A stretch of DNA of 64,000 bases, taken from assembly GCA_964387845.1 (NCBI GenBank), contig CAYLXA010000006.1, forward strand, positions 64,001 through 128,000. The letters are read 5' to 3'. Of this stretch, positions 15,458 through 52,400 are shown piece by piece. This DNA comes from an uncultured bacterium. GTDB lineage: Bacteria > Omnitrophota > Omnitrophia > Omnitrophales > Abzuiibacteriaceae. A program made the position numbers and the translations under genes. The notes under the pieces are model-generated. The model was given only the letters and a program-made list of their open reading frames with translations, ran no database searches and was not told the DNA's origin. Numbering within the stretch: the stretch's first letter is position 1; each line of letters opens with the position of its first letter.

Positions 15458-15482
15458 CAATTCACAAAACTTGCAGCGATCA

Positions 15483-17426: not shown

Positions 17427-17447
17427 AACGGTTCAGAAAGATTAAGT

Positions 17448-18719: not shown

Positions 18720-18803
18720 GCCCGAAATTTGCCTTCCGTTTTCACCCCTCCGAGCCGATAAATTATCTGTAGTGTATACTTATTCAAGTCTTTAAATTTG
18801 TAA

Positions 18804-22037: not shown

Positions 22038-22124
22038 ATTTAAATTTCAAAATTAAAAATTCAAAATATTTGAAATATTAGGATTATTCGCACGGTTTTG
22101 AACTTTTAGTTTTGAATTTGTGAA

Positions 22125-25100: not shown

Positions 25101-25199
25101 TCGACTATCTTGACCTTGTTTGTCATTCCGAACATGTTCCTCTATTTTTCCGACCTGACGCGTCTTTTTCGAACTGAAAAAACTTCCAAGCAAATCTAG
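22125..25199 (+). CDS. RND efflux permease (AcrB/HAE1 family), subunit 2
   Basis: The N-terminus (VKKPVLVTVVFVGFLLLGILAAFRLPVELYQ) and the conserved GxxxD motif region (GLALSIGIMVDSAVVVMENV) match the family, and the length is 1024 aa. The start codon is uncertain (TTG 22125 or ATG 22134). Confidence 0.9.
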   Translation: MRSMGLPNLSVKKPVLVTVVFVGFLLLGILAAFRLPVELYQGTSSGIISIIIRARGGLAPVEVEHMITRPVEESVSTVSRLKTMYSNSREAESRVTLEFEPGTDMNFAALEVREKFSRVKSKLPPEIEKPVIANYSESESAVIVFAVISDTKTPEELREMVETDLKPWLERVDGVASVEIYGGRERKILVELDRDKMVAYSVSVEQVMDVLGASNINLLAGDYERGEYDFAVRTMGAFTSIDEIGNIGVKVTRQGSIIPLKEVATIKDSYLEPEDYARLNLNQNVSIYIKKTSLANTIKVVKLAKQVVKGYADEKVSELRIITVSDRAHSIERAIGDVRGSLILGVFLVTLMIYFALRSPVLALIISTAIPISVISTFLFMDFFGISLNVMTLSGLALSIGIMVDSAVVVMENVFKKREEGLSHEQAVREGSEEMWIPLLAASVTNLVVFLPIIFIDKEIQLIYQGFAFTVCISQVMSLLVAIMLIPMLLSKINFDVPSKPQESPAKPNFISKFYFWYEQLIRASFRLRYLMLSLIVMLFVASAWGLAHRDIDLPSTLEENEFQVVIFPLAGAKLETNDEVVKKIEEMLGQYKEVDLISTTVRKDDIRIFVRLVPRAKRSASKDVIMSQIKEKGNEEIKQVHEEYSLIVDEGASSEESKKMIINIFGLENETLEKLAHEFAKKINSVKGLTNLVMTDLRKRPEYSLVVDRARAAFYGLNVREVADSIHAQIRGMRPTKYHELTEGLEIETITRLQPIFRQKIDDLRNIFVVSPQTGVQVALEQFSSFYPSTGPQTIDRRNKYRYVFLKGDVNRPLETVGKEIKEAVKDVPMPKDYFWRFGGQYESLLQGRSELWLAFVITVVLIYMVLACMFQSFSEPVLVMIAIPLASIGVWLALTLTQKPLSQPVFIGMILLAGYVVNNSIILIDRINHLKKHIRDRNQILVKAGLDRLRPIMMTTGSTLIGFLPMAIAVSDSSELWSPLAVTVIGGLLTSTILTLFVIPNMFLYFSDLTRLFRTEKTSKQI

Positions 25200-28400: not shown

Positions 28401-31400
28401 AAAGCAAAGACGGCCGACATTATCGCCGCAATCAAAGCGATTGGGTTTGATGATGAAGATCTCGAGCTTCTGTCGCAGCTTTCCGGCATTAACGCGGATT
28501 CTTCCGTTCAGGAATGGCGTTATGTTTACACGCAGGTCCGCCGGATCTTCGAAAAAATGTACAAAGTCCGAGACCAGCGCCACGGTGAAGCAAAAGCGGA
28601 ATCCAAAGAACCTTTGGTGGACCGCATTCTGCGCGCGTCCTGGAGTGCTGTGAAATGGTTTTCGAATCCATTCAAAGTGGGTAAGTGGCTGATCACGGTT
28701 GGCCCTCACTTGCTCGATAGTTTTTATTTTGGCTACACACGCCGCGCTTGGCAAATGACGCTTTTTGGAAAAGATATTAAACCATTTAACCGAGCGGATC
28801 ATATACAACAGGTTGTGGATACTTTGTCCGGAGCGATGTTGAATGCCAGAGAAAAGAACTTTGATTCATTTTTAAACCGGAGTCGGTTTGGAAATTCCAA
28901 TTGGAGCATTGTGTACCGTTTTGTTGATAAATACATCTCAAAATTATTTGTATTGCCGCACTTTGAATTTTTCATGAAACGCTGGAAGATGGCAGTTTTT
29001 GGTGTATTTGCACTCGGAACCGTGTCTGTGTTGCTGCCTGCAAGCGTCGCCGGCTACAGCTTGCTCGGTCCGGTGGGCATCTGGATTACAAGCGCTTTTG
29101 AAGGCGCAGGGTTCCTTAGCGTTGCTGCCAATGCTTTTGTTCATGCATTTACGGTTTCTTCATTTCTCAACACAGCGATTTTAGCGTTCATGCTTACTAT
29201 TCCTAATTTTGCAAAGCGTTTCTCCAATCTTCGCATGGACCGTATGATCATTACCCAGCTCGGGCGTTTGAAAAATCTGCAATCTTTGGATTATCCGGTT
29301 GTGCGTAAAGTTCTGAGCGATGTTACGCAGGGCGGGTTGCCCGTGGAGCAAAAATTACAAATCATTTTGGAATTGCAATCACTTCTTCCGCATGTCCGTT
29401 ACGATAATGACTCGCAGAAAACTTTATTTACGACTTTGGTCCATGACGAAGTGAGCCGAATTCAGGATGCGCTCAAAAGCAGCACGCAGGAACGCGCACC
29501 GCCAGTAGTTGAATCACCAAACTTGATCCAACGCTACATCATTTCTCCTCTCTTTGGTGTCATTCGCGCTACTTTCACAATCAACTTCGCAAAAGCGTTC
29601 GCAAAATCCATGTTTGGCATGCTGACGGTCGGTGCCGAAATCGGTGCTTTGGCGGGCGGCCATGCTCCAGGCGAGTACGGCGCTGCGCATTACATGGATG
29701 AATACCTGCTCTCGAAGCCCGTTTCATTCATCATGAAAAATATCACCGGCAATGCGGATTTCGATATCCAGGTTTCTTACTTTGAACCGGCGGTCAATTA
29801 CGTTGAACGCTTCATGATCAATGTCGGCCACTATGCGGTTGAAGGTGTCGAACACACATTCGGATTTAGTGCAGCAGAAATAGTCGCCAAAACATGGGCG
29901 AGCGTCCTCAATACTTTCGGCATTAAAACCGAGGTCGGTCAATTACTCTCAGAAGGCATCAGCCTTCAAGAAATTGAAGTGGCTCGTCAATTAGGCCTGC
30001 CGGCACAATTTCTAAAGTTCGGACAAAAAATACCAGAACCGCAAAAACAAATCGCCGCAGCGCCTGCCACAGGCGGCGCAGCGGGTATGGGACTTGCCAT
30101 GAACCCGATGCTGGCGATCGCTCAGATTGCCGCTATCAGCGCGATGGGTTCTACAAAAGAAGTACGGGATGGTACCGAATACAAAGATGAAAAGCCGAAG
30201 GGGGCGGCGATTCCGCCCGTTCTTTTTGAGAAATTTGAATTTGCGGTACCGCTTCATTCAAGCGTAGCAAATTTAGAAAACCTGAGAAAAGACTACGGAT
30301 CAGTTCCTGCTTCAGAAAGATACCAGGCTGCTCTGGCATTGCCAAAAGCCGAGGAAGAATATGAGGCGGCAAAGAAGAAAGCTTTCCTGAATTTGTTTGC
30401 CTCAGAGCGTCTGGCCGCAAAAGAAAAAGTTGATAGGTTGCAGTCGCTTACCGGAGATTCGATCTTAAAAGAAAAACAAAAAGTTTTCTGGAAACTGATC
30501 AAAGAAATTGACGAGCGCCAGAAATCCCTCGATAAGACCATCGAACAAATTTATAAAAGCGTTACCCATTACACTTCCGATAAGAAAGCAGCAGAACAAT
30601 TTATTGAGGAAGCCAGAGATCAGATTTCGGCGATGCGCGCGATGACGGATTATTTTTCCGCAGATGACGCGCGCTACGCCGTTAGAACCGGCGCCTGGCA
30701 GGTCATGGATGCCGCAGCTTCGGATAAAGAAGTAGCAAAAATTCGCGCGGATATGGCAAGCCGTGAACAAAAAATGGTGGGCCAACTCGAAAGAGTCAAA
30801 GATATTTTAGACCAGTGGCCGACCTATGTAGAAAGTGTTTTGAGCGGCGCTGACGTTGATGTGCCGGCACGTCTCATTGATGAAGAATATCTTCCATGGG
30901 GCGAGCGGGCAAAAGTTTGGCTGGCGGGAAAAGGCATTCCGAATGAAGTGATTGTTTCCACCGAAGGATTAATGACTTTGCTCCATGGTGTGCCTATTCC
31001 GATGCCGTGGGCTCAAAATGAAAGTTGGAAGGGGTCTTTACGGGTCGCGCAACATGATGTGAATCAGGGGCGGGCGGTTCTTGTTGTAACTGATCAAGGC
31101 AATGACTCTATCCGGCATGATGGTGCCGAAGTTTTTAGAGCAGGCTTGAAGGCAGGCATTAAAGAGGCTCTCGTGCTGCGTCATGACCTGATGCCATCGC
31201 AACGAAACAACTTCGTCGTAACGGCGACTTTTTATAGCGCTTCTGCTGAGCGGCTCATTCCTGTGCTCCTGGATGTGGTACGTCAGAATCCGGATATCAA
31301 ATTCAACGCGCGGATGTACGACACGACATTGCAAAAAACCAGTTCCAAACAAGCCGAAACAATCGCCAAACTGGAACAGGATGCTAAAGTTCTGCCCAAT

Positions 31401-34400
31401 CTTTTTGTTCTCAATTTGATCATGGATGACGGCGGTTATTCAAACAAGGGAATTGACGGCACGCCGGATCGGGTGGTCAATTATGAGGTGAGGCGCAACA
31501 ATGGGAAAGGTCCTTTTATCGGACATTTCCCCGGTATTGGCGGAGCTGACGACCCGGATACATTTGCTGCTGTTATGAAATTTAGAAAACAAGAGATAGG
31601 CGCGGCCTCTTCTGCAGCAGCAGAACCAGTTTCTGAGCCCAAAACGAGACATCACGTTGTTGTGGTGTATCAGGGAAAATCGGCCACACCTCCTGTCGAT
31701 AAGGTTGTTGATCAAGTTGAAGGATTGGGCGGCTGGCAGATCGCGAGAATGAAGGGCAATGAATTCAGCGATACAGTCCGTTCTCAAAAAGCGCTTGTCG
31801 CAAAAAAAGTTGAAGAATTCAAGTCTTTAAATCAGCCAGTAAAAGCGGTGACTCGCGTTGATCAATTTGAACGCGCTTTAATTAAAGAAACAGAGTCAGA
31901 AATCGTGCCGCAGCAAACCGCTGAGGTAAAAGCAGAGACAGAAAAGATTCAGGTTGCATTGACTAGCGCAATGCCGAAGCTTCAAGAGGTCGAGCCGGTT
32001 GCCGAAGAAGCGATTGAGCTTGTGTCGGCGGCACAAAAGAAAAGTGCTGTCGAGCAGCCGGTCTTGCTTTCGGATCTACCGCCCTTGTCCTATAGCCAAT
32101 ACCGCTCAGAACAAACCCCGGGCGAACAGCTTTCCGGAATTGATCAATTCGTTTCAAAAGATATTGCGGAACAAATGAGAAAGGATGCCAGCATTTTCTC
32201 ACCGCTTGCCGGCGCACCAGTCGGAACGCCGACGTATGGATTTAGGGACCAAAAGGGCGGGGATATTTTTGAAACTGAAAATCTGAGCGCGCTTGAGCTT
32301 AAGAATCTTGAGAATGAAAGCGAATTTCAATCTGCGGATTTCGCGACTTCCATTCATGTTTTTCTCAAAGCGCGCGATTTGATTAACCGAGGGGCTGCCG
32401 AACGCCGGCTCGAGCTTTTCCTCGAAGCGCTTCGAAAAGTCGAGCTCAGTCCGGACGGCTTGCTGTATGACCGTTACGATATCAAGCGACATTCTAAAAT
32501 AGGCGAGAAGACCAACCTTCAAACATCTAAAGCTATCTACGAATTGGCGGTTCAAATCCAGAGCGAGTACGAACAAATCGCAAAAGGCCGTAGCAAGATT
32601 GATATTCGCCTGATCAAAGAAAAGAATCTGATCCGGCTGGCAGGTTTGGTCAAAGAAAAATTTACGCGCGCACAAAACATCCGCTTACCTGAAATTCCGC
32701 AGCCCGAATTGCCGAAGCGGTTGTTTGTCGAAAAAGATGCCGAACCGCTTCAAATCGAAGAATCCGTCGCAGCATCCAAGCCTTTGCTTGCGCCTGAAGT
32801 GGTGCGCGTACCTCAAACCGCAGCGGTGAGCGGTGAGCGTGCGGTTGTTTCGAGCGTTGAAGAAATTGAGTTGGTGGCAGTGTCAACCCGGCCGCTTGTC
32901 GAAGAAAAAGTTTTGGAGCCGGCCGTTGAAAAGCAAGAGCCGGCGGTTGCGCTTGTTGAATCAATTCCGGCGCCGGAGCAGGAAAAAGTTGAACCAAAAC
33001 CGGCGGTCATATCAGTCCAATACGAAATGCCGGGAAAAGGCGGTGATGTTAAAGTCGCTTATCCGGAATTTGAGCCCGGCCAAGTTCAAGTCATGTTCCA
33101 AACGGAAGTATCCGTTCCGGAAAAACCGGCTCCGGTTCCTGCTTCTGCTCCGCCTAGCACGACTCAAGCCAATCAGCCGGCAAGCCTTCAGGCAATTGAA
33201 GAAAAAACAGTTCAAGCCGTTCCGGCCGCAGCGCCGAGTTTGGTTTCGGCGAATAAGCCCGTTTCAATTGATGAAAGAGAGCCGGTTGAAATGGAAATCA
33301 AAATTGCCCAACAGCCTGAGAAGGTTGAAGAAGTTGAAAAGGCGGAACCAAAGGTGCCCGCCCAAAAGTTGCGCATTCAGCTTCCGGATTTCAAGCGATG
33401 GATAAAATCCGCCAAAATTGCGGCTGCAGGACTCGTGGCACTTTCCGGCGCCTGGGTCAATGAAGTTTCGGCAAAATTTCAAGCAATTCCTCCCGCTACT
33501 GTTCAAAAGGCACCAGAAGTAAAAGAAGCCAAAGAAGAAATCGTAAAAGAAGAAATTGCACTCACTCCGCCCGTCAAAATTGAAGCACCAAGCCAGGAAA
33601 AATGGACGGATCTTGAGCATCAAAAGACGGCCGATGTAGTCATGGCGGCTTTGCGCAGCGCGCCGCAGGATTTGCGCGAGAAAGTTTTGGAACTTATCCG
33701 GTCAAAAGCCGGCGCTCCGGATTACATCCGAGAATTTGATGATTTGGTTCCGGTTCCTGAAGACATTCGCTCGCGCGCCAAAATAGAAACTGTCTCTCCG
33801 GGGCAGGAAATTAAATATTTCGGTGAAAAAGAATTTTGGGACGCCATGCAGGCAATTTATCCGCCGGATAAGGATCGTCCGCATTTTACTCCGTCTTATA
33901 TCCGCGACAATAAAGTTGCGATGACGCATGAAGAATTATTGAACCGAAAAGACCTTGAAATTTACGTGAATGGCCGATCGCTCGGCCAAAAATCAGCCGA
34001 TCATTTACGCCAATCTAAAGAACTCGAAAAATTACCCATTTTCTTTATCCGTGTCGGCGCCGGTTTTGTCGGCTTTGATTATACGGGTGCGACGATTTCA
34101 ATCGGTTTGCGCGGCCAATATTCATTGGGCCATGATTTAGCCGAGTGGCGGCAGGTGCTTAATGTGATGTCGGAAGAACATAAAGTAGCGGCAGATATTC
34201 TGAAACGTTACGTTGCGTTCAGGGCCGTTGGATATCAATACGCACAAGCGCAAGAAAAAGTGAGTAATGCGGATGCGGAAATCAAACGCATGAACGAACA
34301 GCTTGCGAAGGGAATCTATCAAGTCGCAACTCATCAGGACGAATACGCGATCGGAAAAGCCATCAGCATCATTCAGCATGAAATTAAAACTCAGCAACAA

Positions 34401-37400
34401 TGGCGTTACAACCAGTACGACACGAGCCGTGTTTTAGGCGAAATCATGAAGCTTGACTCGCGTCAAGTGCATGTTGAATTAAATTCCGATTATGTGCGCC
34501 AAATCCGAAAAGAGTTTGCGGATGCGCCCAATTCTCTGAAATCGTTGGATCCCTATAAGCAGCAGGAAATTTATTTGAAGACAGCGATGGAAATTTTGAG
34601 TGACCGGATTGAATTGGCCCAGAGGCACCTGTCCAGCATCAGCTACGAACTTCGTTTCGATATCTTTTTGGCCAATAAGGCTTCGGACCTTTTGGCTCTG
34701 ATCGGCGGCTTTGGCGTCAGGAAAGGCAACGACCGGACACTTGGGCAAAAATACATTGACATCGCCAAAAAACAGATCGACCGCTACAAACAGTACGGCG
34801 ATGAGCGTTACAAGGTTGAAAAACTGGTTCGTGATTATCAAAAATTGAAAGAAAGATACGACACGACCTATACGGAATCCGTGAAGGCAGCGCAAAAACA
34901 TTATGAATTGGCCAAAAAGTTGGATGCGCTCGAAGTCATTCCGATTAACGAACTAGAACAGGCTTGGAAGGCCTATGAAAGTCAACTCAAGGAGAAAGAT
35001 GCGCTGTATGTACAACTTCAACGCATTGTTGCTGAGATGGAAGGGCTCCGCACTGCCCAGCTTTCAGCAGAATCGATTGAGAATCCGTCGCCAACCATGC
35101 GCGAACTTCAAAAGCTTGAGCAGCGCCTCAAAGATACGGATCAAATTGATTCGTTGGTTCAAATCAGGGAAGCCGAAGGTGTCACCGGCAATGAGCTTCA
35201 GTTTTATAAACGCATCCAGCAAAATCCGGACAAGGAAAGATCGGATATTCAAGCGGAGCGGGTTGAATTGGTAAGACAGCTGCGCGAAGATGCGAGCCGC
35301 ATTAGAGCGATTCAGGATAAAAGCGGGCTCAATATTGATTATCTCTATCCTCTGGATTCTCGAAAAGGTGAATGGATGTGGAAAACCGGCCGGGCAATCA
35401 AGGGGTTGGACGGTAAATATTACACAATCCCAATGCTAATTCCCATTAAGGCCGAATACCAGAGTTATGCGGAAAGTTTGATGGAACGCGGCCTCGCAAA
35501 ACAAAATTTCCTGGGTAACTTTCAATCATCATTTTCGGACCGCCATATTGAAGACCAAGCTCACGAGTTAATGAACCGGTATCTCGAAATCAGGCCGAAA
35601 GACGGACAAAAGCCTGCTTGGAGCCGCGAGGAACGAACACAGAAGATAAAAGAATTTAATGAAATGGCAGAGAGTTATTTAAAACGCCTCGAGGAACTTG
35701 TTCCGGCCTACGCTGCGCTTGATTATGCAGGAAGGCCGAAAAGTTATGGCGAGCGGCTCATGTCCGATGAGGAGTGGCAAAATTTTCACAGCGAATACAA
35801 AAAATTCGAGCGCAGTTATTATGCTGCGCAAGAAATGGTTGCGGAATTAAGCCAGGAAATTTTGCCGGCGACAGGCGATGCCGTCAATCCGCAGATTGAT
35901 GTCTTAAAAGCGCAAAAGTTAGCGGCTGAAACGGCCAAAAAATCAATCGATCTCAACATGTTTGATGAAGCGACAAACATCGCCGATGCTTCTGATTTGA
36001 CAATCCCTGAGCATATCATCGGGCCCGCGACTGTAAGGGCACAAACCACCGATGTGCCGGTCCGGGCTTGGCAAGAAGGCTTATTGTCGGCGGCAATGCC
36101 GATGATCCGAAAGCAGTCCAACGTTCTTTTTGACCTCAATATCCAGGGCTACAACTTCGAATTAGAAAGACTCTTCAAAAAAGATTTTGAAACCAAGGAA
36201 CTCCAGGCAATTCCCGTAATCGGCTGGTTTGTTCCGGGCAGCGATTCTGAAATTACGGAAATGAGAGCGCAGGTGTTGGTTATCCGCCAGAAAGTCATGA
36301 AGCCGGATGACAGCGGTTCGGGCGGCGGCCTTGGCGGTGGCATGGGTGGTGGCGGGCAATTACAGCTTCCGGGCAAATTGGGCAAACTCCAACAAATGAT
36401 GGGACAGATGCAGCAATTGATGGGTTCGTTTCAGGGCCTTGGAAACGGCGCGCAAACATTTCTCGGTGCGGCTGGTCAACGGTTTCCGATGGTAGCCCGT
36501 GCACAGGGCTTGCTGCAAGGAATCAATGCTCAGCAGCAAATCTTTAATCAATTTACAGGCGGCCAGAATTCTTCCCTCCTGCCGTTTGTCACAGGTCAAA
36601 TGAATCAGCTTAATCAAACCGGCCGGATTCCGTCTGTCGGTCTCGCGTCTTCCGGAGCGACAGGGCCGCACGGAGCACTGCAAACATCGACACCGGGCCG
36701 AGTCAGCGGCGAAGCTTATTCGGCGGATGCGTTTAATCAGGGACTTGATTCACTCAGGCAGGGCGGTGATTTAGCGAAGGAAGTGACGGGTAAGCTGCAA
36801 GGTCAAGGCGGTGAGCAGGGTGGTATGACAGAAGAGATCGAATATGAAATTGCCGGCGTGTTTACGGTCCAATTCAAATTAACGGGCAGCAATGAAGAAA
36901 AACAGAATCAGCTGCGCACTCTTATTGCACTTAATGAACAAAATAAAGTGCTTTACGAAACTGACCAGCAGAAGAAACTCCTCGAAATCGCAATTGATTA
37001 TGAGGGTAAGGTCCAGTTGCTCAGGGCAAGAAAGCTTCACCGCGAATTTGTCAATACCACACGGCGAGCTATCCTCGATAAATTCACCGAGTGGCGTGTA
37101 ACGCCGGCGAAACAGGTCGAATTTGAAGCAGATTTAGCCGTCATCGACAAGAACATTGACGACCTAGAAAAAGAAATCGCCGAGACGCCCAATAAAATCA
37201 GGGAAGCGCTGAAGGTTACACCGGAAGCTGCCAACGGCCTGCTGCACATGATGAAATCTGAAATCGAAAAGCACGGCATTGTCGATATTCGCGAACTGAA
37301 CGGCATTGAGAATTTACGCCGCCAAATTGTTGAGAACCCATATGCCGACCGGGCCGCAGGGTACCGTGTGCTTGCTGCTCAGCTGGAAGAATCGCGCGCA

Positions 37401-40400
37401 AAGTTATTTGAGAAAATCAAGAACGCTTATCAGGTTGAGCTGAGCGTCAGCACAAAGCTGGAATTCAATGTGGTGCTTCAGGAATTGGGTTACGCGATCC
37501 GCAATGCAGTCGCGGGTGAACAGCGCGGTACGATTAATGATTTTCTGGGTCAGATTCAAACGGGCCTGAATCCGCAGGAAATGCAAGGCCAAAGAGACCG
37601 GTTAGAGGCGTTGACGACCGCGATCCGGAAAAGCGGTCTCAAGCGCGAAGTGATGGATGCTTTATTTGAAGTTGCGATCGTCGAACGTGTCATGCAGGAA
37701 CGGGTCCGTCAAAATGAGAAAAATCGAATGGAGCAGCTCATTCGTTTAGAGGAAGCGAAGCTGCGTCTTCGGCGCGAAGAAATCCAGCTTGCAAAAATCC
37801 ATGAACAGAAAAGAATCACGCCCGCGGACAATTGGATCAAGCAAGTCCTTCTGTCCGCGGAGATCTATATTCAGGAGCTTTTGCTTATGGGTGCGCGGGA
37901 TGATCTGGCGAAAGCGATAATGCAGTCGCTTTCTGCGATCGCGATGAGCGAGGAAGAAATCCGGTCTTTGCAGGTTTTAACCAACGCAGAGCAGAGAATT
38001 CATGAATCAAACCGCCGGATCGGTCTCCTACAGGCGCAAGCCGTTGAAAGTGATGTGTCAACCCGGGAAGAATTTTTTGAACTCCAGAGAGAGTTGAAAT
38101 GGCTTTATGAGCGAAGAGACCAATATTCCTTGCCAAGCACACCGGACGGCTCTTTGAATGAGTTAGACCAAAAAATTGCAGAAAATCATAAAGCCATTCA
38201 AGCATTGGTTGCTGATGCGCTTCTGCGCAATCCGAAAATCAAAGAAAAAGTTACGAAAGAAGAAGTCATTCGTGATGAGCTCTTAATTTCTAAAAAGAAT
38301 ATCGAAGAAGAAAAGCAGGCTGTGATCAGCCGCCACGATCAAGAGGTGAAAGTGATTTTGGATCCGATGATCCAGCTCCATCAAGAACGTGCACAATTGG
38401 GAATTGATGCGGCCAATCGGCTCGATGTTGAGCGCGCCAAAAAGGGAGAGGACCCGGTTTTGGTCGAGCTCAGCGATGCGCGCCTTGCGCAAAGCGTGAG
38501 CGAAGTGGAGGGAATTGACCGAAACGCTGTCTTGGATGTGATGAGTAAGGTCATGAACGTGATCGGTGATATTGAAGTGGCGCAAACCATGCTGCGGGAA
38601 TGGGACGGAAAAGCGTTACCCCGTTACCTGGATCGCCTGCTCAGGAATCTGTATTTTCTGGCCGGCACCAATCAATTAGACGATGTGCTGCGCGGGACGG
38701 CGCAAGGGTCATTCAAAATGGGTATCGGCGGTTCGCTCATTAGCGATGAAGACCTGAGAAATTTAATCCGCGCGGAAGCCTCGCGCTGGGCGATTCGTGT
38801 GAAAGAAGTTGTCCGCGATAAGATCATCCGGGACGAGCAGGCAAAAATCTACAGCGAATATCTGCAGTATGTCAGTTTGATTGAAGAACTTTATATCGAC
38901 CTCAAAAATATCCGAGCCCTCGAGAAAGCAATCAAGGCTTACGAAGCCCGCGCTAAACGCCAATACGATACAGAGCGCTTAAACGATGCAACCGGCCCTT
39001 ATGAAAAATTAGAACAGGCGAAAGTCCGGCTTTATGTGTCTTTAAAAAGAATCAAGGTCCAGCGCGCACAGCTCGAATTTTTGACTCAGGAATATTTACC
39101 GCACAATGTGTCGGTCTTTAAATCCGTCAAGGCGTCAGGGAAGAGTGTTGAGGAAAATCTGGAGATCGAATTCCGAACCTCGGCGGCTCATGAACAAGGC
39201 GTCGACTTGGAAGCGCTTGGGGCCATGCTCAGCGGTGAAGTGGCTGCCGAAAATCCGTTTCCGGCCGGTTCCGACAAGGCAGTGTTTTGGAATAAATTTT
39301 ATAGATCCAATATCCGCGGCGATGAATTTATCCGTGAAGTCCGCAAGCTGCGGATGTCTCCGGAAGATGTGTCAAAACTCAAAAAAGAAAACGGGCTCGA
39401 GCAATGGATTTGGGGTTCTTCGGACAATCAGTTTCAAGTCGCAAAGGCCATGAACGAAAATTTAAATGCCGATGCCATTGGCTTTTTCCTATTTCCATTT
39501 GGCAGCTTCAAGTTTGACATCAACGCGTTTTTGGGCGGTTCCTGGGACTTCAAAAATAAACCCGAGTTCTTGAATATTATCAACGCTTCAGCCGAAGTGG
39601 AGTTTGACTGGGGCGCCAAATGGCAAGCCTTCCAATCGGCCGTTCAGAAATCTTTGAATGAAGCGTTTAAGCTAGATGAAATTTCAAATGACGCCGTCCG
39701 CCGACGCCATCAAATGCTCATGGAATATGCGTTTATGCAAATCATGTACGAAGCGTCCCAAGAAATATTGAAAACCGCCATCGAAAATGAATCCACATGG
39801 TATAAAGCGCTCATGAGGGGCAAGATTGACTGGGATAAATATTACACATCAAACACGCACGGCCTTGCGCGTATTTGGGACCTCGAGCGTACATTAAAAG
39901 AAGAATGGGTTGCATTGCATGCAGCCAGCCGCAACATTCAAAATTCTCTTGAGGAATCAGGAATTCAAAGCACCTCTGTTTTGATCCAGTCTTTCCCGCT
40001 TCCATTGCCGCCTGAAATTGAACACAAACTGGTGTCGGAAGCCGAGATTCAATTACAAGAGCATGCCGCCCAACAAGAAAAGGCGGCTCTTGAAAAAGCT
40101 GCCCAAGATGCAGCTGCAAGAACGAAATTCTTTTCCGAATTTAAAGACTTATTTTCAAGATTAAAATCACTGACCGAGAACATGTTGGTTAATCTCGAAA
40201 ACGTCATGAATAAACTCGGCGACCTGCAGGATCAATATAAGCCCACGCAGCATCACGGGGAGCTCTCACCTGAAGCAAAAGCAATTTTGCCTGACACGAA
40301 TGAATTTCTGAGAGTCTTGAAAGTCAAAACCCAGAGCGGTGTTGATTCTGTTGATTTGGAAACATTTGCCGAACGAATGGCAACGTTTGGAAGAGAGCGG

Positions 40401-43400
40401 CATATGTCGTCCGAGGATCTGCAAAATCTAATACGGTCTGCGATTGAAATTGCCAAAAAATTAGAAGCTGCACCGGGCGAAGCCCCGAATGAATTACAGA
40501 CAAAATGGGCTGCCATGTCTGCGCCCGGCACAAAAGCGGACGGCTCTGCGTTCTTGATGAGTGAACGTTGGCCGCCATTCCTGGAAATTCCTTTGCGGCA
40601 TCTGTTTACTCAGGAAGAAATCATACGCTCGAGAGGTTCTATCGCTGATAAGAATCTCAATTTATATCAAATCGGCGCCATTCTACTTTCCGCTATGCGC
40701 GAGCAAGCGGCTAAGGAGCTGGACTATCGGTTTGAGAACAATTTAGACGAACTGGTAAACGGTGTTGAAGCCTACAAACAAATCCGTGCCGGCTCCGGCG
40801 ATGCGTCAGCTGTGCAGCGCTATCTAAGTTGGTATAGGAAATGGGTGATCCCCGTAGGCAGTGCCGAGTCACTATTTTCAACCGGAGTTCTCCTTTACCG
40901 TCCTTGGGTTAAATTCCAAAGAGCCGGGGATCAGGAAATTAACATTGATGACATCAGACAGCATTGGTCGTTTGTGTCAACGTCATTTGTGAAGCATATT
41001 CAAAAATCCGAGAAATTTCAGGCAATCGCGCAATATTTAGGTCTGGATCCGGTTGAGTTTTTTGACAGTCAAAAAGATCAAGGCAGGCTCTACGCCATTA
41101 TTTCAGAACTGCTTAATACCGGCATTATTAAGACGCTGCCGACAACCGAAGCCGAACTGGAAGCTCTGAACGCCGAAATTGATCATTTCTTTGGCGAGCT
41201 CATGCCTTTGATTGAAGAACGCAAGTATTTCTACCTGACCGTAGGCGCTCTTCCGAATTACAGTGATTTAACCCAAATGCAGCATTACACCGCATTGGAC
41301 GGCAGATTAACAGGAACCGGCGGAGCGGAACTGCCATTCGCTAAATTCCAAGAAGATGCAGCGCGGATGGAAGACGGTATCGGCAAGTTACAAAAACTCT
41401 TACCTTCCGATATTATTTTTTATCAGCAAGTTAAAGAGGCGAAAAATGTTTTGGATGTTATCAAGAATGCCTCCGATTACTCTCAAATTTCAGACTTAGA
41501 AGGTCTCATGGACCATTTGCGAGAAATCGTGGACTACGCCCGCGAAACCTATGCGTCGTTGCTGCTGGGCGATGCCTACTATCATTATGGATTTTTCCGG
41601 GAGAATAAAGCAGTGCTGGTCCAGTTAAATTTAATAGATAAAAAGGATCTTAACTCCAAGGGGGCGCTGAAGCCGGATAGCTTGCGGCCAGTTACGCAAA
41701 AGTATAACCAGCTACTTCTCCATTCAAAGGATTACATTGAGCATTTTTACTTGGGTAAACCAATTGATTTCTCAAGCATGGATCAAATTGGTGTTTGGAA
41801 TGCGCTTGCGCAGACCAAAGCCGCCGGTTTGGATGATACGGTTTTCTCTGCGTATTTGAATTGGGCAAGCCGAATTGCAGGTATTCGTGAGAAAAGTGCG
41901 CTGTCCGATGCTAACCGCGAGCTTGCAGCGCAATTATGGAAAATCATTCCGGGACTTCAAGATAAAATATCAGAACAAAAATATGCGGAAGCTCTCGCAT
42001 CAGGCCTTGCGGTCCATATTCTTTTAAATCCCGAGCTGACCGAAGCTGATTTGATCCAGCTCATACAAAATATCAAGGCAATGTTGCAGAATCCGGAGTT
42101 GGTAGAGAGCGTTATACGAGAGTCACAGTCGGAGCTGGAAATTATATACGGCGAATTACGCTCCATTGATTTAACACGGCAGAAAGATTTTGGCATTTTC
42201 TTCAACGCATTTGCGGAAGCCCATGAATTGGGATTCAGCCAGTTTCTGGTCCGTCATCAGAGAACTATGAATTTGATTCAAGAGCATCAACGCATCCGGG
42301 AGCAGGAGAAAGGCACCGGCTCTCGAGCGGAAACCGCTTTGAGCCGCGCTATCCTGATCGGCAGTCAAATTGAAAGAGTTAAGAACGGTGACGGCGCAGT
42401 ACAGATTGATGAAATCTCATTCTTCCAAAATCAAAAAGCGCGCAATTCGGTCATGTGGGTTTTGAGCGGCATGGCAGACGAAGGTGTTGATCCTTTTGTT
42501 TTGAAATCTGAAGCTATTTTGGATTTTCTTAGGGAATTTTATTCAGATCAGCCGGTTCGTTACGATCATCTTGGCCGTGTTAGCGTGGATGCCGAGTCGA
42601 AAACAGCTGTGGAATTAGCAGCCGAGCTTGCTCGTGAGCGTGAAGTTGTATTTCAAGGCCAGGACGCACTCACTATTTCGGCAGAAGGCATCAAGCAAAG
42701 CCGTGTGATTTGGAACCGGGTGATGGCAGAGTTGGGCGGCATGGCGGACGAAGGCCTCCAAACCTGGATCCAAAAGCATCGCGGCAGCGATAAGCAAATC
42801 GGCGTCTTTCCAATGCTCTCAAACCGCGAACAGTTGAACAAATTATTTCCGTCTATTGAAGCATTCTATCAATCTATATTTGGAGCTGCCAATACACCCG
42901 AAATCAATCCAGAGACTTTCAAAGCCAATAAAAGGGTACAGATGCTTGTCACAGCCTGGTTGGGTTCGGCTGCTGAAGAGGGATTGGCAGAATGGAACGC
43001 CAAAAGCGATGTGATTGCTCGAATATTAAGCAATCCTGAAGAAAGAAAGCAAGTGATCGAAGCAACGCGGGAATATGCACATGCTCTGGAAAAAATATTG
43101 AAGATTGATTATCCGGAAATCAGCGAACAATCTTTGGTTGATGATCGCCGCGCGCGCGCTTTGGTTTTGGCTTGGACGGGCGCGCAGCAAGAGGACGGAA
43201 AAGTAAAATGGGCACGGAAAAACTCGGATATCATCACTTTCTCAGAGCGAGTCAATGCGCAAGCCGATTTTGCGGAGGGATTGGATAATGTCACGAGGCA
43301 TTATTATGAGGCCAAGTATGGGGAAGCGGTCGGCAGGTCCTGGACGCCGAGCCAACGAGGCCAGCAAGTCGGTTTGATTTTCATGCTGGCACGCCAGTAT

Positions 43401-46400
43401 GTGGAAAATCCAAATCTAACGGATGGCCGGCTGATCGAGTATGTTAACGCAATGGCTGATCTTGCCCCTGTCTTTATCGGAAGAGATGCATCATCCCGTT
43501 CGTTTGATCAATCCAGAATTCATCAAACCTATTTGAGGCTGATTGGTGAGACGAAATCGCGCCATGATCAGCAGCATGAAATGGGATGGGTTGATGCAGA
43601 ATTGGCGTATATGGCCGAACTGATTGGCTGGGATGGAGTTAATTGGAAGAAGCGAGACCGCTGGCGCTCACTAAGTTCTTCCGAAAAAATCGAGCACCGC
43701 TATCGAGTGCTCGAAAAAGCGACGGACCCTGTGATCCAGCAAGAAGCCAGGGATTTGATGGCGCTGGTTTCTTCCAAATCTTCGGATCAATGGGATCTGC
43801 GCGCTCATCCTTCAGACTTGGGCTTTTTGGTGACATGGGCAGACATGAAAATGGAGGCCGGGGAAGCAACCGATCTTTTCGGACAATACCGGCATGTGAT
43901 TGATTCTTCGGCATTCAGCCGTTATTTAAAGGAATTTGATATTGCCCAAGAATTCCGAAAGGAACTTGCGTCGACTTTTTCTGAAGTTGTGAAGAAGGCG
44001 AACGGGGAAGACGCGGACCGAAACCAAATCGAGCGTTTTTATGAACTCATGGGCCGCGTGTCATCTTTTGCGAAATTTACATCACTGCAATTTGATCAAA
44101 AAATAAAAGTCAATTTGGAAGTCATCGATGCGCTGAAGCGCTATTATGGCCAGTCTGCTTCTGATTCCAGCCAGGCAATGATCGACGGCGTCATTGATTT
44201 GTTATCCGTCCTTAAGATTGAGCCGGTTGAGCTGGCCGGAATGCAAGCTGAGAATTATTATCAACTCCGCGAAATGATGTACCTCATGGCAAAGATTTCT
44301 GAATACCGCAGAAACCGCGAGATGGCAAATGACGGCCCCGTTCCGCAAGCCTATGTTGAAGATATGAAAAGGGAATATAGGTCTGTTTTTGTTGAAAGTA
44401 TGCTGCCGGGATTTGCGCAGAAAATAGTGCCGGCCAAACACGGAAAATTGGAAAACTGGATCGGTGATTTTGAAAGCATTATCCGTGAATTGGCTGATTA
44501 TCCCATAGAGCTTGAGAGCAGCGATGCAATTTCTCAATATAATTTTGCGCGATTCCTGAAAAATCTAGAAGAGGAAGGCATTGTGCTTGATGACGCGTCA
44601 GTTAAAATTTACGAGCGGGTGTTCAAGCAGTACCAGCTCATGGGCCTCGCAAGCTGGTGGCTTGATCAGAAGCTTCCTGAGGCCGAGGAGCAATTTACGC
44701 TTTCTGAAATTAAAGAAAGGATTCAGAGAAAGAAGCTTGTCTGGGCTCTGAATGAGAAATACTGGAATTCAGAAAGTTTGCACATGCCAGTAACTGCGGA
44801 CGAGATATCATTCTTGGCCGATTTAGAGCTTTACGAAGACGAGTATGAACACTTTTTTAGAATGAGTGCCCTTTTCCAGAACTGGGCATCAGCTCACTTG
44901 GGCCGCCATCTTTTCTTTGATGAAATTATCTACTTCTATTTTGCTCCCGGTAAATATTTCGGTGACCTGGTCATGCCATTCCGCGGCGGCTTGTCTCGGC
45001 TTTTAACTTGGGGCCAGGACCCCGATTTGCTCTCCAGGTTTAGAGCGAAACATTTATTTGAAAATGTTTTAACCGGACCCGAACAAGCGCTTTATCAAGT
45101 GGCCATGAATCGAGAGAATGAAGAAAGGCGCTTTATTTTGTGGCATGGACAGAAACAGTTGCTAAGAGTGATTGGGCTGGGCCCGGATTATGAAGATTAC
45201 TGGTATGACATTCTGCATGAAAAGCAAACGCTGGGCGAATATGCAAGCGAGAAATATCTTAAAGAGTTGTTGGTAATGGGGCGTGTTCTGAGCGAGGGTG
45301 TTCGATGGCTTGCACTCGGCAATCACTTTTCATATGACGACAACATGCTGACTGATGAATTTAAGCGGAATCAATACATCATTTTAAGGCTGCTGACACG
45401 CCGCGAATACCGCATATTGACTTCAGATGAAGAGAAAATGAGCATCAAAAAGTTGATTGAGTATACGCGCGATCAAACCAAAAACAAGAAAGTCGAAATT
45501 GAAAATCCTTCGGAATGGGTTGAATCGCTAAAGGAATTAGCCCGAGCCCATAATCGTGTTATTGAAACCGAGCAAGAGCTTAAAGAAATCATTAAAAGTA
45601 TTTTATGGGATGCGGAAACGATTATCGACGAAGCTGATCGCGAATACGATGTGAAGCTTGATCAGGATTCTGTCCTGAAAGTAATCATGGAGCAGCGCAT
45701 CAACGGAGAGCTGCATCAAATCACCAAAGCAGAAGAAATGATTACAAAACATTTCGCCAATTCAGTTATTGGCAGGAATTCGATCGAATTGAGCAATGAA
45801 GAAAATCAGATGCCTGTCTCTGTATTGATTGAAAAATGGCTCAACGATTATGAACTTCAAAATACGCCGATTGCAGGCCTGAAAGACCGCTGGATATTGG
45901 CTGCCAATGACAGATCGTTGGATTATGTTTCGATTAAGACGATCTTTTCAGACCTTAAAACAATGCAGGACGCTTGGCGTAATGCGCCGCTGTTTAGGCC
46001 GATGGATTTAATCGAGTCATTAAAACTTGTGAATAAAGTCCGGCGCTTTGGTTTGGATAATATCGGCATTGTGGAGCCTGAAATATTAACGCCCGTTCAA
46101 AGAACGGAAAAATATAAGAAGAATAAGAAATTGTTTTTAGGAATGATCGGAAGCGATTTGATCGCGGATTCAACACAGCAAATCGCCATTCTTTTCAACC
46201 AGCAAACTAAAAACTGGAGCATTCAAAAAACAATTGACGATCTTGAGAAAGACAAATCAATTGAAACAAAACAAGAAAGCTTCCGCTTGATCCATGGTGC
46301 CGCCGTTGTATTGGTCCTGTCTCTTATTTTAGTAACCATTCGGGCGCATTATTTGAAATGGAGACAAATGCAGTCGGCTAAGAAGGCAGGGCTGCCGACA

Positions 46401-49400
46401 CCGCAAACGCCGTATCGCCAGGGTTTGTTCAAGAAAGTGAGCGAATCGGTTAAAGGGTTTTCGCCTTTGACTTGGGTCAATATTATTTATTTTGCCTCGG
46501 TGTTGCTGATCGCCGGCTCTATGTCGTGGGCTTACTTTGTTGCGCACGCTTGGGCAATTTCACATTCAACGTTTTCGACTTTGATGGTCATTATGTTTTC
46601 TTATTTGAGTTTAACCAACGCTCACATCTTGGTTGATCGTCTGATTACGCTCCCAAAATTCAGGGACCGATTATTTAGAAAGCAGCCTGTGGATGATGTA
46701 AAAACACCTAATTTTAAAGATGCTTTCCGTGCAGGAAATTTTCCTCCCGGGCATCAGGCGGTTGTTGCCATTATCACTCAAGCCAAAGGGAACACTTTTG
46801 GGAAGCTTGATCAAAGAACCGGCGAGTTGAAAGGGCAAGTGATTGAAAATTTAATGGTCTCATTAAAGAATAATCCCGGCGTGCCCGGTGTCATTATTCA
46901 GGCCGGACAGGATTTGGATGATGTAGAAACGAACCGGCAAATCCGCATGATCGAGGCGCTTGAGAAGGCGTTAGGAACGCGCGTTTATTATTTCAGGCGC
47001 AATAATTTATTTTCGGCAGGTGATATCAATCTTGAGAAGAAATTCGGTGCTTTCCAGGAATATATGCGATTTGTCGGTGACGGAGCTATGTTTGCCGAGA
47101 ATGAAACCGATCAATATCCGGGCCGTCACTTTGGCTTGGATGTTACGAAGAATGTGAGTTGGGTTGCGGGTTGGACAGTTTTAGCAGCAACGCTTTTCAA
47201 TGCATTAATTCCCGGGCTGTTATTGAATCCTCTTGGGCTTGTCGTTGGCATTCTGGGAATTTCTCTTGGCGTTGGGTATCTTTGGACTTTGTGGAAATAT
47301 GGGCAAGCGAAGCGAATCTCAATTAAGACCATTGTCGGAAAGAATGAGCTCTCGGCGTTGACGCGTTCAACCCTTCCATATTATGACGTCATCTACGGCG
47401 ACTTAGGAGCGATCGGTTTTGTCGATATGGAAAGCGGACAATCTCTCCAAGGAAGCAGGACTTGGCGTGCGGACGAGGCATATTGGCAAAAAATAAAATT
47501 AGACACTGAACACCCGAACAAAATTTGGCTTTCATTTATCTTGGACGACAAAAACAAAGTTGGCATGAACTCTACCAACGAAGACACGGAGGGTCTGACA
47601 GAGGCGGATCGATGGCTGCGAGACCGAATGAAAGTTGAGAACCCTCTTGAGCGGCGCGAACAAAATGCCTATTACGAAGCAGTTCGAAAAGCAGCGGAAA
47701 CGATGTATCGCGAAAGTTGGGCAGCCATGGGGCAGCCCGTTTATGAAATTGGCAACCCGAATGCCAGCATGTTTTCGGAGATGCTTTCAATTGCTGCCCG
47801 AGTCGGTGAATTTTATGCGGGCGCGCAGAAAATATTCGGCCGCGGACGGGCGAATTTTACCGGCAAAGGGCCCGTTGTCGTGGACAGGTGGCTGCATGGA
47901 ACGCGTGAACGCCATCAGAAAATCATGTGGGGTTTCGGCTTGGGCAGTATCGGCGGTGTTTTGGTGGGTGCGCTGATTTCGTCTTTGCTCTTTGGTGTTG
48001 GGAATATCGGCTTCGGAATGCTAATTGGATATTTCTTGGGCGGAGCAATCCTCGGGAATTTTGAAATGCGGTACGGAACCGCATACGGCGTTATTTATTA
48101 CGGAGAACTTTCACATGATTATGCGGAAGGCGGCAGTGTGGGTGCGGCCTATCTCAGCAATGTCGGAATCACGGAAGATGCAACAACGGATTTGGCTAAA
48201 GAGAACGAGCGCGGCCCAACGCGCTGGTTCCAAGGCGTTATCCCGTACTGGCGTCATCAATTTGGCCCGGGCTACACACTCATTGATCGTTGGATGATGT
48301 TTCTGGCGGAGAAAATGTATTTAAATGATACGTTGTTCCTATTTTGGTTAATAGGCGGATTTGTCGGGATTACGTTTTCCGGTTTGGCTGACACTTTCTA
48401 TCCAGTGGCGCGTCTTCAAGAATATTCAGAACCTCTTTATGCAATGGGGTTGTATATATTGAACATGTTGGTCATCATAGGTTTTGCTAACTTTGTTGGA
48501 GCTTTTTGGAAGAGCGCCGATAACGCAGGCGTCGCTACTTCTAAGGAGAGGTTCCAGGCAATTGCTCGTTCCACGATGATTTATCTCAACAAACCCTTTA
48601 TCACGACCGCATACGCAATTCCGAACTTGTTCCGCGTATTAGTCGGCGGCGAACATCCGAGAGCGCGCGATTGGGCTCCGGAGCACAAGCTTAGGGCATT
48701 GGTTTTTGGATCACTTATTGGGGCAATTAATTTACTCTTACTTGCCAACCTTTTTGTCGGCTGGGTGTCGATTTCGTGGATGGTGCCGGCGGCAGTTTTT
48801 GTGGCTTCATTTTATGCGATTCATCGTTTGGCGGGGCGGTATATTCCGGTAGCCCGAATTTTTGCGGAACTTTTATATTTAACTCTCAAATTTTCTCTAT
48901 TTGCTATTCCAATCGTGGTTTTATCGGCCTATTCGTATATAAATGAACCTTTAGTGGCTTTTCTCGAGAAATTCTCGTTCATCAGCTTTATCAGCGCACC
49001 TATCCAGGCGCTCTTGATTCAAATTTTCGGAACTATCATTTTAGAGGCCAAAGCATTGAAATGGATTCGTGAACTTGAAGAAATTTTAAAAGAACCGCTG
49101 CCTTGGAGAGGGTTTACGCTGGTCGCCGGGTCGAAGGGGCCTTTGAAAATGTATGAATCGGCTGTGATGGTAAAGTGGTCGTTGATTACTACCGTTGCGG
49201 TGATTTTATCCCACGTAGTCATCACCTCTAACTTTTGGGTTATTTCAGGATGGGGAATTCCTCTCTTCGTGTCCTGGTCAATTGGGTGGTTTTATGTTTG
49301 GTATACCTCAAAAATGATGCCTGATTTTGTTCGTGAAACAAAAACAGATAAATCCGGAGAAGTCATTAAAGATGCTCAAGGTAAAGCCAAACTATTCCCG

Positions 49401-52400
49401 CGGCTATGGAAATCTATACCGAAACTGGCCATCGCCGAACTTGTAAAGACTTCGAAGAATAAAGAAGATAAGGAGATAATCAGAATCGGAGATGTGCAGA
49501 TTAAAATGGAAGACATTCGATGGAGGACGGTCCCGACCATTCTCTTTCTTTATACGAAAGAAGCCCTGTCTCTTAGCAGTATGAAGCAAAATTTGAATCC
49601 AAGTGTTCTTTGGAAGAAAATTAAATCTGCGCCTGCGCGGGCAGACCATTGGGCAAATGGTCTTTTTATGCTCGGAGTGGTGTTCGGCACTTTCCTATTT
49701 TTGGGTGTTGTGATCGGCACTCCGCTTTATTTATGGTTCGGGACCGGTCACTTATTTTTACCAACCGCATCGTTCTGGTCGAAGGTCGGAATCGTTTGGC
49801 AGTATTACATCGGAGCCGTAGTTGCCGCTCTGGTGTTGCCGGGCGTGTTTGGCCATTTATTTGCATTGACCGTATTTCCGCTGGTTTGGATCAATCGCCA
49901 ACTTGTCTTAATTAAAACGTTCTTCACGAAGGTTGTTGATACCAAGGGGCCTAATTTTAAAAAGGGCCATGACGACAAAGGATCGCCCGAAAGTATTCAA
50001 GAAGGCGTGCAAAATGTTCAACTCGAAGTTGCTAACTTTATTTCTCAAATTTCAAACCGCAAGATTTCAGGATTTGCCGATGAAGTGATGAGAGAAAAAG
50101 ATCCGGTCAAAATATTCGACATGTTCTTCAATCTGGATGCTTTTAAAATATGGAAATTTAGGATCGGCGGCAGTCTTTTCAGGTGGATTCATCAAGTAAA
50201 AATGAAGCGAGAAGCTTGGCGGATGAGTCAGCGTCCAGACGATTATATGTCGGTTGCACAACATCAGAACGAGATGTTTATTGCCTTAAAGGCGCTTTTT
50301 GAAGGCCGTACAGATTTTCTGAATCAAAAGACTTTTGATAAACAGGCTTTAGATTCCGCGCTCTTGAAGCGGCTACAAGAAAGCGTGGACAGTTTGAGCG
50401 AGAGAGAAAAAACATTGCTTGCCTTGACGGTTGTGCTCAAAGATTTTGGTAAAATCGCGACTGCAGGCCCCCTGGACCCTGTTGCAGGTTCGAATATCGT
50501 AGAAAAATTGCTGACAAAGCTCCAATTTGATCCGAAAGATGTCCACTTTATCAAGCAGCTTATTCTCAGAAACCGCGAGCTTGGGTCATTGCATTGGGGT
50601 GAAAAAGACCCGCTCAAGATTTTATCCGGTTTGGAAGTTGAAAAAACAGAGCTATTTCTAAAACTGCTGACCATTATTTATGTGGTGGATGTTTCGGCGG
50701 TAGGCACGGGAAAGCTAACCTCCACACATTTAAGTAATGCATTATTTATGCAGGATCAAAGCAACCTTTATTCCTTTGCTTTGACCTGGCCCGAGTTTCG
50801 CGCGGCAAGTTTTTATAGTAAAGCCGCAGGGCAGGTATTGGATTTAAACCAGCCGCAGTTTACCAATCATATAGATCCGGTTTTGTTGCAGGAAATCAAA
50901 GAGAGCGGCGGAAATTATGATTTCCGGGAATTTATGTATAACGTTACATTTCAAAGAGCGATCAATATTTTCCGCTATTTTGTCCGGAACGGACACCCCG
51001 AAAATGTCACCAAACTTTTATATATCTTTTTCAGGCTGTATCAAATTACCGGTATGAAATACATCGGAATTTTGGATGACAGCGAGCCGGTAGCCGAAGC
51101 TTTGGATAAAAAACTGTCCTCGATTTCATGGGAGGAGCTCCGGTTTGCTCGTGTTGAAGCCCCGTCTGTTGAAGTGAAATTGCAGAAAGAAACGGAGTGG
51201 GATACGACGCGGGATACTGTCTATGCTATCGAAAAGAGCACGGTGGTGGTAAGAAAGAAAACAAATTTAGATACCGTAGAAACCGTTCTGAGCCTGCCTT
51301 TTCAATATACGGATGACCACCAGCAAGTTCTTATTAACGCAGATCCGGACCCGTCCCCCCGCTCAGAGCTTCGCCAAATTAAAATCGGTGATTTGACATG
51401 GCTTTCTTCTATCAGTGAGTTTCAGAAACTCAAGGCTACAAACCCAGCTCGCGCAGCTCATATGGCAGAAGTGGTTCGATATTTTAAAGCATTTTCCGAA
51501 GGTGATTTTGCCTATTTTGCGGAAAGGCTGCAAGATCGTGCTGCAACTCAGCCGGACAAAATTGCAAGGTTTGAAACAAAGATGAGTGATCTCAAGAAGA
51601 AATTCGATAGTTTGAACGATGACCAGCGTTTGGCGCTGTGGCTTGCGGTCAATCTACACGATATCGGCTATTTAACCGGCGGAAGCAAAGACGAGAGCAC
51701 GCGAGGTTCCGTCTTGGCTGAAGAAATTTTGACACGGGAAGGCGTAAAGGAATCTGTAGTTGACCTTGCAAGCCGGATCGTGCTCGCGCATGAACTGTTG
51801 GGCAATGTGGTGGTCGGAGAGCGCGCACCGCAATCGGCCTGGCCCAGCATCGCGCCGTTATTTGATTTTCTGCAAATCCACACGGTGGTTGATGTGGCTG
51901 GTTATGGGTTGATGACTACTTATGTGTTGGATTGGTTTTTGGAAGTCAAAGACAAGTTAGAGCAGATTGCACAGACTTTTGATCAATATAGGTTGGAACG
52001 TTTGGTCAAGCCGGCTCCTAATGCTGATGCTATTAGTGCAGATGCTCTGGAGCATTTAAACGATGCTATCCGAAAAATTTTTGGAGATGAAGAAGAGATT
52101 TTGCGTTCTGTGCTGCGAAGCCGAGTTGAATTTTTAAGCCGCTCCAGCACCATTGCCCGCAAATTGGCTGCAATAGATCCTTCATATGAAGGTTATGCCA
52201 AATTTATGCGCATGGCCGGGCATCTCGCTCTCTTGGCGGGTGAGGACGCCAGCATTTCTGTTTTCAGCGATTTAGATCGGTTTGATGGCCGGCCCACTTC
52301 TAAAAAGGATATGGATCAGGCGTTGGAAGCTATCGCTCAGCGCATATTAGAATTGCCAAACACGATCAGTATTACGGATGCACGGTATCATTTGGAAGAG

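Follow-up and report, generated by a model that had tools for sequence, protein, structure and literature searches.

The bacterial chromosome segment analysed here (the window, 64,000 nucleotides in full) carries a single open reading frame between an upstream and a downstream group of genes, and this frame encodes a protein of 9,371 aa. On its 5' side lie two-component genes, a carbamoyltransferase gene and an RND efflux set (OEP, HlyD-like and two AcrB-like genes), and on its 3' side lies the nusA-infB-truB-ribF-pnp cluster; Rfam and tRNA scans across the window found nothing. Over its full length the protein matches no Pfam family at E<0.01, its one NCBIfam match is far below threshold (21.8 bits against a cut-off of 631), and BLAST at 1e-3 recovers no internal repeats. 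The hydrophobic helix at its N-terminus ends in AWA, and the giant-protein family to which it belongs is, as a whole, essentially free of cysteine. The region considered in detail, nt 42440-43375, corresponds to aa 5650-5962, where a preliminary description of this DNA had proposed four degenerate tandem modules. The features referred to below are listed here, with relatives denoted by P or L and a number.

25491..53606, forward strand: giant ORF that carries the modules; free of cysteine, with a signal or anchor helix at the N-terminus (aa 12-30) and without Pfam or NCBIfam domains
25527..27230, forward strand: conserved N-terminal domain (aa 13-580) with an HIQDAH motif, found also in P0002 and P0003
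42162..42407, forward strand: M0, possible degenerate copy (aa 5558-5639, GIFFNAFAEAHELGFSQFL), not significant in the window protein alone
42408..42677, forward strand: module M1 (aa 5640-5729), core MWVLSGMADEGVDPF; the longest copy, with a low-confidence insertion of about 20 aa between helices B and C
42678..42905, forward strand: module M2 (aa 5730-5805), core VMAELGGMADEGLQTW
42906..43121, forward strand: module M3 (aa 5806-5877), core VTAWLGSAAEEGLAEW; of all copies the nearest to consensus, with predicted helices a0 (5807-5812), aA (5814-5830), aB (5832-5847) and aC (5849-5870)
43122..43337, forward strand: module M4 (aa 5878-5949), core LAWTGAQQEDGKVKW
43338..43772, forward strand: M5 (aa 5950-6017) and M6 (aa 6018-6094, MGWVDAELAYMAELIGWDGVNW), possible degenerate copies, both helical
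46287..49874, forward strand: multi-TM block of the conserved core (aa ~6933-8128), downstream of the modules
48108..48512, forward strand: segment aligned with OpgH (aa 7540-7674), against residues 446-602 of E. coli OpgH

All four cores claimed in the preliminary description are present in the frame of this one ORF, at aa 5655, 5744, 5820 and 5893 (nt 42453, 42720, 42948 and 43167). They are spaced by 267, 228 and 219 nt (89, 76 and 73 aa), a range slightly wider than the 240-270 nt originally given. The core motif recurs as described, but it had been written one residue short, and its corrected form is W-x-G-x-x-[AQ]-[DE]-[DE]-G-x-x-x-[WF]; the first W is absent from the second copy and shifted by one position in the first. 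A module is about 75 residues long overall, with individual units of 72-90 aa.

We trained HMMs on three copies at a time and searched all 9,371 aa with each of them, using 50 locally shuffled giants as a control. The omitted copy was the best non-training match each time, at 5.9, 12.7, 17.4 and 5.5 bits for M1 to M4 (low for M1 and M4), and the best matches in the shuffled giants reached 0.0-3.3 bits. An HMM of all four copies found no further copy above shuffle level elsewhere in the 9,371-aa protein. A relaxed regular expression, which was fitted post hoc, matches these four sites only, compared with a mean of 0.03 and a maximum of 1 match in 2,000 shuffles. Self-comparison of a 9-sequence alignment with hhalign gave an off-diagonal score of 125.5 (E 4.8e-15) over 345 columns at a shift of about 80 aa, with further alignments (scores 43-44) shifted by about 165 and 250 aa; the reversed alignment scored 20.1 and 20 column shuffles at most 18.0. 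When the modules were compared in pairs, M2-M3 scored 41.1 (E 5e-8), M3-M4 28.5 and M1-M2 27.6, followed by the weaker pairs M2-M4 (25.7), M1-M3 (18.6) and M1-M4 (18.1), all six lying above the reversed controls (at most 14.9). The repeat is real and consists of four diverged tandem copies, M1-M4, each of which is individually significant. Composition alone does not account for it, as shuffled proteins and reversed profiles score lower.

Plain self-BLAST does not pair the copies, which are about 15-25% identical to each other, and TRF finds no tandem repeat in the DNA, where the sole link between copies is one 36-nt match of 78% from the M1 core to the M2 core. A recent duplication at the DNA level is ruled out by these results, and the duplication is therefore ancient. 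According to one survey, ancient repeats whose tandems have dissolved at the DNA level are the rule among Omnitrophota giants (10.64898/2026.06.07.730766).

Flanking copies are only hinted at. In the module-pair comparison M0, M5 and M6 are not individually significant, with the exception of M3-M6 (19.2). M5 and M6 are covered by the long off-diagonal alignment and are weak when taken singly (M4-M5 reaches 14.7). With the module HMM, whose shuffle maximum is 4.1, the orthologues of M0 reach 14.2 bits in P0005 and 22.0 bits in P0012, and the orthologue of M6 in P0001 reaches 10.3 bits. These segments may be degenerate copies, and the four solid ones are probably what is left of a longer array that had six or seven in the ancestor.

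In order to find relatives, we searched 1.84 billion cluster representatives in full by HMMER, with aa 5401-6500 as the query (E<=0.001). It returned 12 matches, all of them giant proteins or fragments, with lengths that include 7,699, 7,111, 5,491, 4,027 and 2,529 aa. Pattern scans added one genome locus (L001, in a Candidatus Omnitrophota MAG) and two metagenome loci, and the reading frame is open over the full 20 kb in all three (L001-L003). With so few matches, and an Omnitrophota MAG as the only genome among them, the module is indeed lineage-restricted, as had been suspected. By this homology the window itself would be assigned to Omnitrophota. A word-indexed protein search with the region, a 6-sequence alignment and a 36-copy alignment returned nothing, a result of little weight, as the prefilter evidently misses the family. 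The broad family alignment contains no conserved stretch of 7-10 columns.

The modules align one-to-one with their orthologues in P0003, P0005, P0007 and L001-L003 in the 9-sequence alignment. An HMM built from M1-M4 of all relatives (shuffle maximum 4.1 bits) also detects copies on which it was not trained, in P0006 (14.6 and 26.3 bits), P0010 (17.6 and 26.1 bits) and P0012 (22.0 bits). These alignments indicate position-by-position conservation of the repeat across about a dozen relatives. P0010 spans the whole of its 4.5-kb contigs.

The window protein shares two parts with P0002 and P0003, namely aa 13-580, at 36-40% identity, and aa ~5726 to ~8150, which are collinear and make up the only long block in common. 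The roughly 5,000 aa between them have no relative among the HMMER matches. Since the shared block starts at aa ~5726, the modules form the N-terminal edge of the conserved core. Further into the core, aa ~5950-8150 are 30-35% identical over more than 1,000 aa, a stretch that includes the multi-TM OpgH-like region. The modules had been called the most domain-like part of the protein, a view that does not hold, as both aa 13-580 and aa ~5950-8150 are better conserved.

An AlphaFold2 model of aa 5540-6130, built on a 6-sequence alignment, is all-alpha (pLDDT 75.2, pTM 0.73), with pLDDT of about 80-88 for M2-M4. The DSSP layouts of M1-M3 in this predicted structure are in register when anchored on the conserved Gly, and a small hairpin at the turn is the sole deviation of M4. 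The layout that emerges for the module family, by prediction rather than experiment, is a0-aA-Gly-aB-aC, with an a0 of about 6 aa, an aA of 17 aa that runs to [DE]-E, a one-residue Gly break, an aB of 16-19 aa and an aC of 17-22 aa. The tail of aA reads ...W-L-x-x-x-A-[DE]-E, aB often starts with Trp and aC often with a D-P cap, so that the motif reported earlier corresponds to the predicted aA-Gly-aB junction; the helical stretch said to follow each core likewise agrees with the modelled secondary structure. In an alignment of 36 module copies the conserved columns are those of the hydrophobic core (V, W, L, I, A, F/Y) and two Gly (57% and 64%), together with a basic residue ahead of aA and the D-P cap ahead of aC. 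Among the core positions, V is hydrophobic in 94% of copies, W is Trp in 50% and hydrophobic in 89%, L is hydrophobic in 100%, and A is conserved in 61%.

Searches for a known family to which the modules might belong agree with the earlier view that they match no named repeat. Pfam at E<=10 over aa 5640-5949 returns noise only, with no ARM, HEAT, TPR or Sel1 family, and on the 36 module copies it returns 16 unrelated families with one match each, all below cut-off; Sel1-like, SLH, PG_binding_1 and spectrin repeats were considered as candidates, and Pfam supports none of them. NCBIfam, run on the protein, is equally blank above threshold, and PDB sequence and profile searches with the modules and the region give nothing above chance. 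Foldseek, run against PDB with the AlphaFold2 model of the array, finds no recognisable fold match (best E 0.35, and TM <=0.15 among the 50 matches listed). With Pfam, PDB and Foldseek all blank, we detect no membership of the array in the ARM, HEAT, TPR or Sel1 families or in any solenoid of solved structure.

As a type, the array belongs with the tandem alpha-helical repeats. Like ARM, HEAT, TPR and Sel1 repeats, the modules are arranged in tandem, highly diverged and all-alpha, with conservation at core-hydrophobic and turn positions and a likely role as a scaffold or interaction surface. ARM repeats, like the modules, combine a short helix with longer ones (one short and two longer in ARM). 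The unit in those four families, however, has 34-47 aa and two or three helices, whereas the modules have 72-90 aa and are predicted to contain three long helices and a short one, and Foldseek against PDB gives no superposition of the array on solved members of these superhelical solenoids.

A further clue to the setting of the array comes from the membrane core that follows it. OpgH (MdoH) is the GT2 glucan synthase of osmoregulated periplasmic glucans. A comparison of the family profile with E. coli OpgH in hhalign scored 38.4 over 131 columns (E 7.8e-4), compared with 19.2 for reversed OpgH and at most 22.7 for 40 locally shuffled OpgH sequences. Collinear catalytic motifs of the OpgH type ([ST]ED-like and Q/RxxRW) are present, with SHDYAEG...TED...TRW aligned to OpgH 446-490; LSHDYAEG of the window family corresponds to LSHDFVEA of OpgH, and TED...TRW to YEEL...RRW, followed by helices. 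The family shows no variation in LDDKN, SHDYxE, E and RW, and no tool aligned LDDKN to the LDADS of OpgH. Among NCBIfam models at E<=10, MdoH is the only recurrent family, matched by four models in two of five relatives at E 0.0014-0.056, with scores of 12-14 bits where the curated cut-offs require 419-884 bits; the window protein itself has no MdoH match among these models, and Pfam at E<=10 gives no GT2 match on the core. Unlike OpgH, the window protein has its putative GT domain split by TM hairpins and large insertions, and an AF2 model of the GT-like region has a pLDDT of 38.6, too low for use. OpgH-like or GT2 membership of the downstream core (aa ~7090-7680) is thus suggestive only.

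The protein resembles the Pfam-dark giants of Omnitrophota described in two surveys (10.1101/2023.11.21.568195; 10.64898/2026.06.07.730766), in being very long and membrane-anchored with many TM helices, and it is linked to the same phylum by the one relative resolved to a genome, an Omnitrophota MAG. At 9,371 aa it is under the 10-kAA and 30-kAA cut-offs applied in the two surveys, and at Pfam E<0.01 it differs from the giant classes described there by having no SecA_DEAD, dockerin, TSP3 or peptidase domains. An Archaeovorin (SecA_DEAD) or a giant of the dockerin/TSP3 type was considered and is ruled out, since no such Pfam family occurs over the 9,371 aa. Complete absence of database matches is reported there for 137 of 916 long proteins (10.64898/2026.06.07.730766), and we did not find the module described in the accessible text of either survey (10.1101/2023.11.21.568195; 10.64898/2026.06.07.730766).

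Taken together, we favour the interpretation, with a probability of roughly 0.55, that the region arose by ancient tandem duplication of an all-alpha module not described before, the copies of which stack as a non-catalytic scaffold by the membrane core. M1-M4 (aa 5640-5949) are its clearly recognisable part, and up to three degenerate copies may flank them. Stacked on one another, the modules would form a rigid helical structure without catalytic function that connects the lineage-specific N-terminal part of about 5,000 aa with the membrane-embedded core and positions the one relative to the other. Such a scaffold may double as a docking surface, and its location is probably extracytoplasmic. 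We infer this role because conservation at core and turn positions coincides with a confident helical prediction and with a position at the boundary of the core. The conserved columns are those of a hydrophobic core, Gly turns and helix caps, a pattern that seems to fit a structural scaffold better than a specific binding pocket.

A somewhat unlikely alternative is that each module binds a ligand, be it a glycan, a cation or a partner protein. The A-[DE]-E-G turn and Trp would then make up one site per module, and the array as a whole would be multivalent; its targets might be the nascent polymer of the OpgH-like core or the surface of a host or prey. Sites that bind sugars or cations typically contain aromatic and acidic residues, and the turn offers both, the W...[DE][DE]G...W pattern of all four copies being present also in P0005, P0010 and P0012. 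The array also lies beside a putative glycan synthase, maybe on the extracytoplasmic side, and adhesion roles have been proposed for Omnitrophota giant proteins in one survey (10.1101/2023.11.21.568195). However, conservation of the acidic pair at the turn reaches only about 40% across the 36 copies, the pair is often missing from P0003 and L001-L003, the Trp positions are 89-92% hydrophobic, which suggests burial, and Pfam, PDB and Foldseek show no similarity to a carbohydrate- or cation-binding family.

Sidedness bears on a second alternative, which we consider rather improbable, namely that the array is a cytoplasmic platform for regulation or assembly, comparable to the helical accessory domains of large synthases, that recruits partner enzymes or senses substrate for the OpgH-like core. 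The GT loops of OpgH are cytoplasmic. Three hydrophobic helices (6933, 6993 and 7030) separate the region upstream from the first GT-like loop, and the loop at aa 6952-6992 is net positive. Given cytoplasmic GT-like loops, the three TM helices and this positive-inside signal would put the long region upstream, together with its modules, outside the cytoplasm. We hold this assignment tentatively, as a simple topology model conflicts with the local positive-inside signals around TM 1168-1237 and a weak hydrophobic segment at 1531-1549 must be invoked to reconcile them. The resulting ambiguity in TM parity ahead of the region favours the platform, as does P0005, which has the same modules along with segments that, by eye, are kinase-like and nucleotide-metabolism-like; multi-enzyme giants are common in Omnitrophota according to one survey (10.64898/2026.06.07.730766). 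Besides the predicted topology, the N-terminus with its resemblance to a signal or anchor ending in AWA speaks against a cytoplasmic location, and so does the near absence of Cys from the family, which would be unusual for a large cytoplasmic enzyme scaffold.

The weakest reading, that there is no repeat and that the likeness reflects helical periodicity, composition and a reader's selection of the best motif matches, could draw on the blank self-BLAST, the low identity between copies and the low leave-one-out scores of M1 and M4, but it is highly improbable and largely refuted by the controls, with omitted copies ranking first in the whole protein above 50 shuffled ones, profile-profile scores 2-6 times those of reversed or shuffled controls, untrained copies in independent proteins and predicted helices in register.

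Omnitrophota giant proteins are for the most part dark matter, and surveys of them depend on Pfam matches. For the window protein, the module array is the first internal landmark, being statistically solid, conserved and helical by confident prediction. It marks the start of the conserved core and gives a testable lead to an OpgH-like glycan synthase, the 36-copy profile can be used for annotating relatives, and aa 5640-5949 (about 310 aa, Cys-free and helical) are a tractable fragment for expression and structure determination. A degenerate helical repeat by itself would not surprise a specialist, and the surrounding family, which is Cys-free and Pfam-dark and has an OpgH-like core, is arguably more interesting than the repeat. 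A far-reaching interpretation, which we regard as a long shot, is that the module is the founding member of a new helical repeat family specific to a small Cys-free clade of Omnitrophota giant envelope proteins, in which a very divergent OpgH-like processive glycan synthase would be fused to an extracytoplasmic array that guides or binds the extruded polymer or a host surface. If true, this would be a new machine in which synthase and surface apparatus are combined in a single chain, in host-dependent ultrasmall bacteria.

The giant protein (9,371 aa, encoded at window positions 25491-53606) and the genes directly upstream of it contain the following features outside the module array:

15471-25199, forward strand (that of the giant gene), directly upstream: RND-type efflux set
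25527-27230 (aa 13-580), forward strand: N-terminal domain shared with the relatives P0002 and P0003
~27230-41930 (aa ~580-5480), forward strand: middle region of about 4,900 aa
~46758-48512 (aa ~7090-7674), forward strand: OpgH/MdoH-like GT2 motifs in the conserved membrane core

The efflux set comprises an outer-membrane factor, an HlyD-like adaptor and two AcrB-like pumps. Type II secretion genes have been reported close to other Omnitrophota giant genes, but none were seen near this giant gene within the window.

The N-terminal domain is preceded by a signal-like helix ending in AWA and contains an HIQDAH motif. It shares 36-40% identity with the corresponding ends of P0002 and P0003, and had no match in Pfam or NCBIfam searches. 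The middle region that follows has no counterpart among the 12 family members, which were themselves retrieved only with a query comprising aa 5401-6500, and neither a Pfam domain nor, by BLAST, an internal repeat was detectable in it.

At the DNA level the sole trace of the module repeat is a 36-nt stretch, 78% identical between positions 42449-42484 and 42719-42754 (270 nt apart), which codes for the V-M-x-x-L-x-G-M-A-D-E-G cores of the first two modules, M1 and M2. The GMADEG codons are nearly identical in the two copies, and this match may be a coincidence of codon usage or the result of local gene conversion. In the relative P0005 (7,699 aa) the module array is followed, within one polypeptide, by many segments that look enzyme-like by eye (P-loop kinase-like, ROK-kinase-like DIGGT, HD-like and NDK-like). 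On this reading by eye, P0005 resembles the "multi-enzyme" class of Omnitrophota giants (10.64898/2026.06.07.730766).

The membrane core carries the motifs YYFRR..AGDIN, LDDKN, NFTGKGPV, LSHDYAEG, TED and TRW. Aligned with E. coli OpgH, a GT2 synthase of osmoregulated periplasmic glucans, using hhalign, it scored 38.4, compared with at most 22.7 for shuffles. MdoH was also the sole recurrent NCBIfam family for the core, with matches in relatives and none for the window protein itself; the GT2 similarity was not picked up by Pfam. AF2 gave no usable model of the GT-like region (pLDDT 38.6). TM hairpins seem to interrupt the putative GT domain.

The giant protein contains no cysteine over its entire length, and its relatives are similarly depleted (P0002, 0/5491; P0003, 2/7111; and the proteins of the related loci L001, 0/6781, L002, 0/6761, and L003, 0/6234). 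At the cysteine frequency of 20 neighbouring proteins in the window (0.71%), the probability of finding none in 9,371 residues is ~8e-30. Such strong selection against cysteine throughout a giant-protein family could stem from export in an unfolded state or from an extracytoplasmic location.
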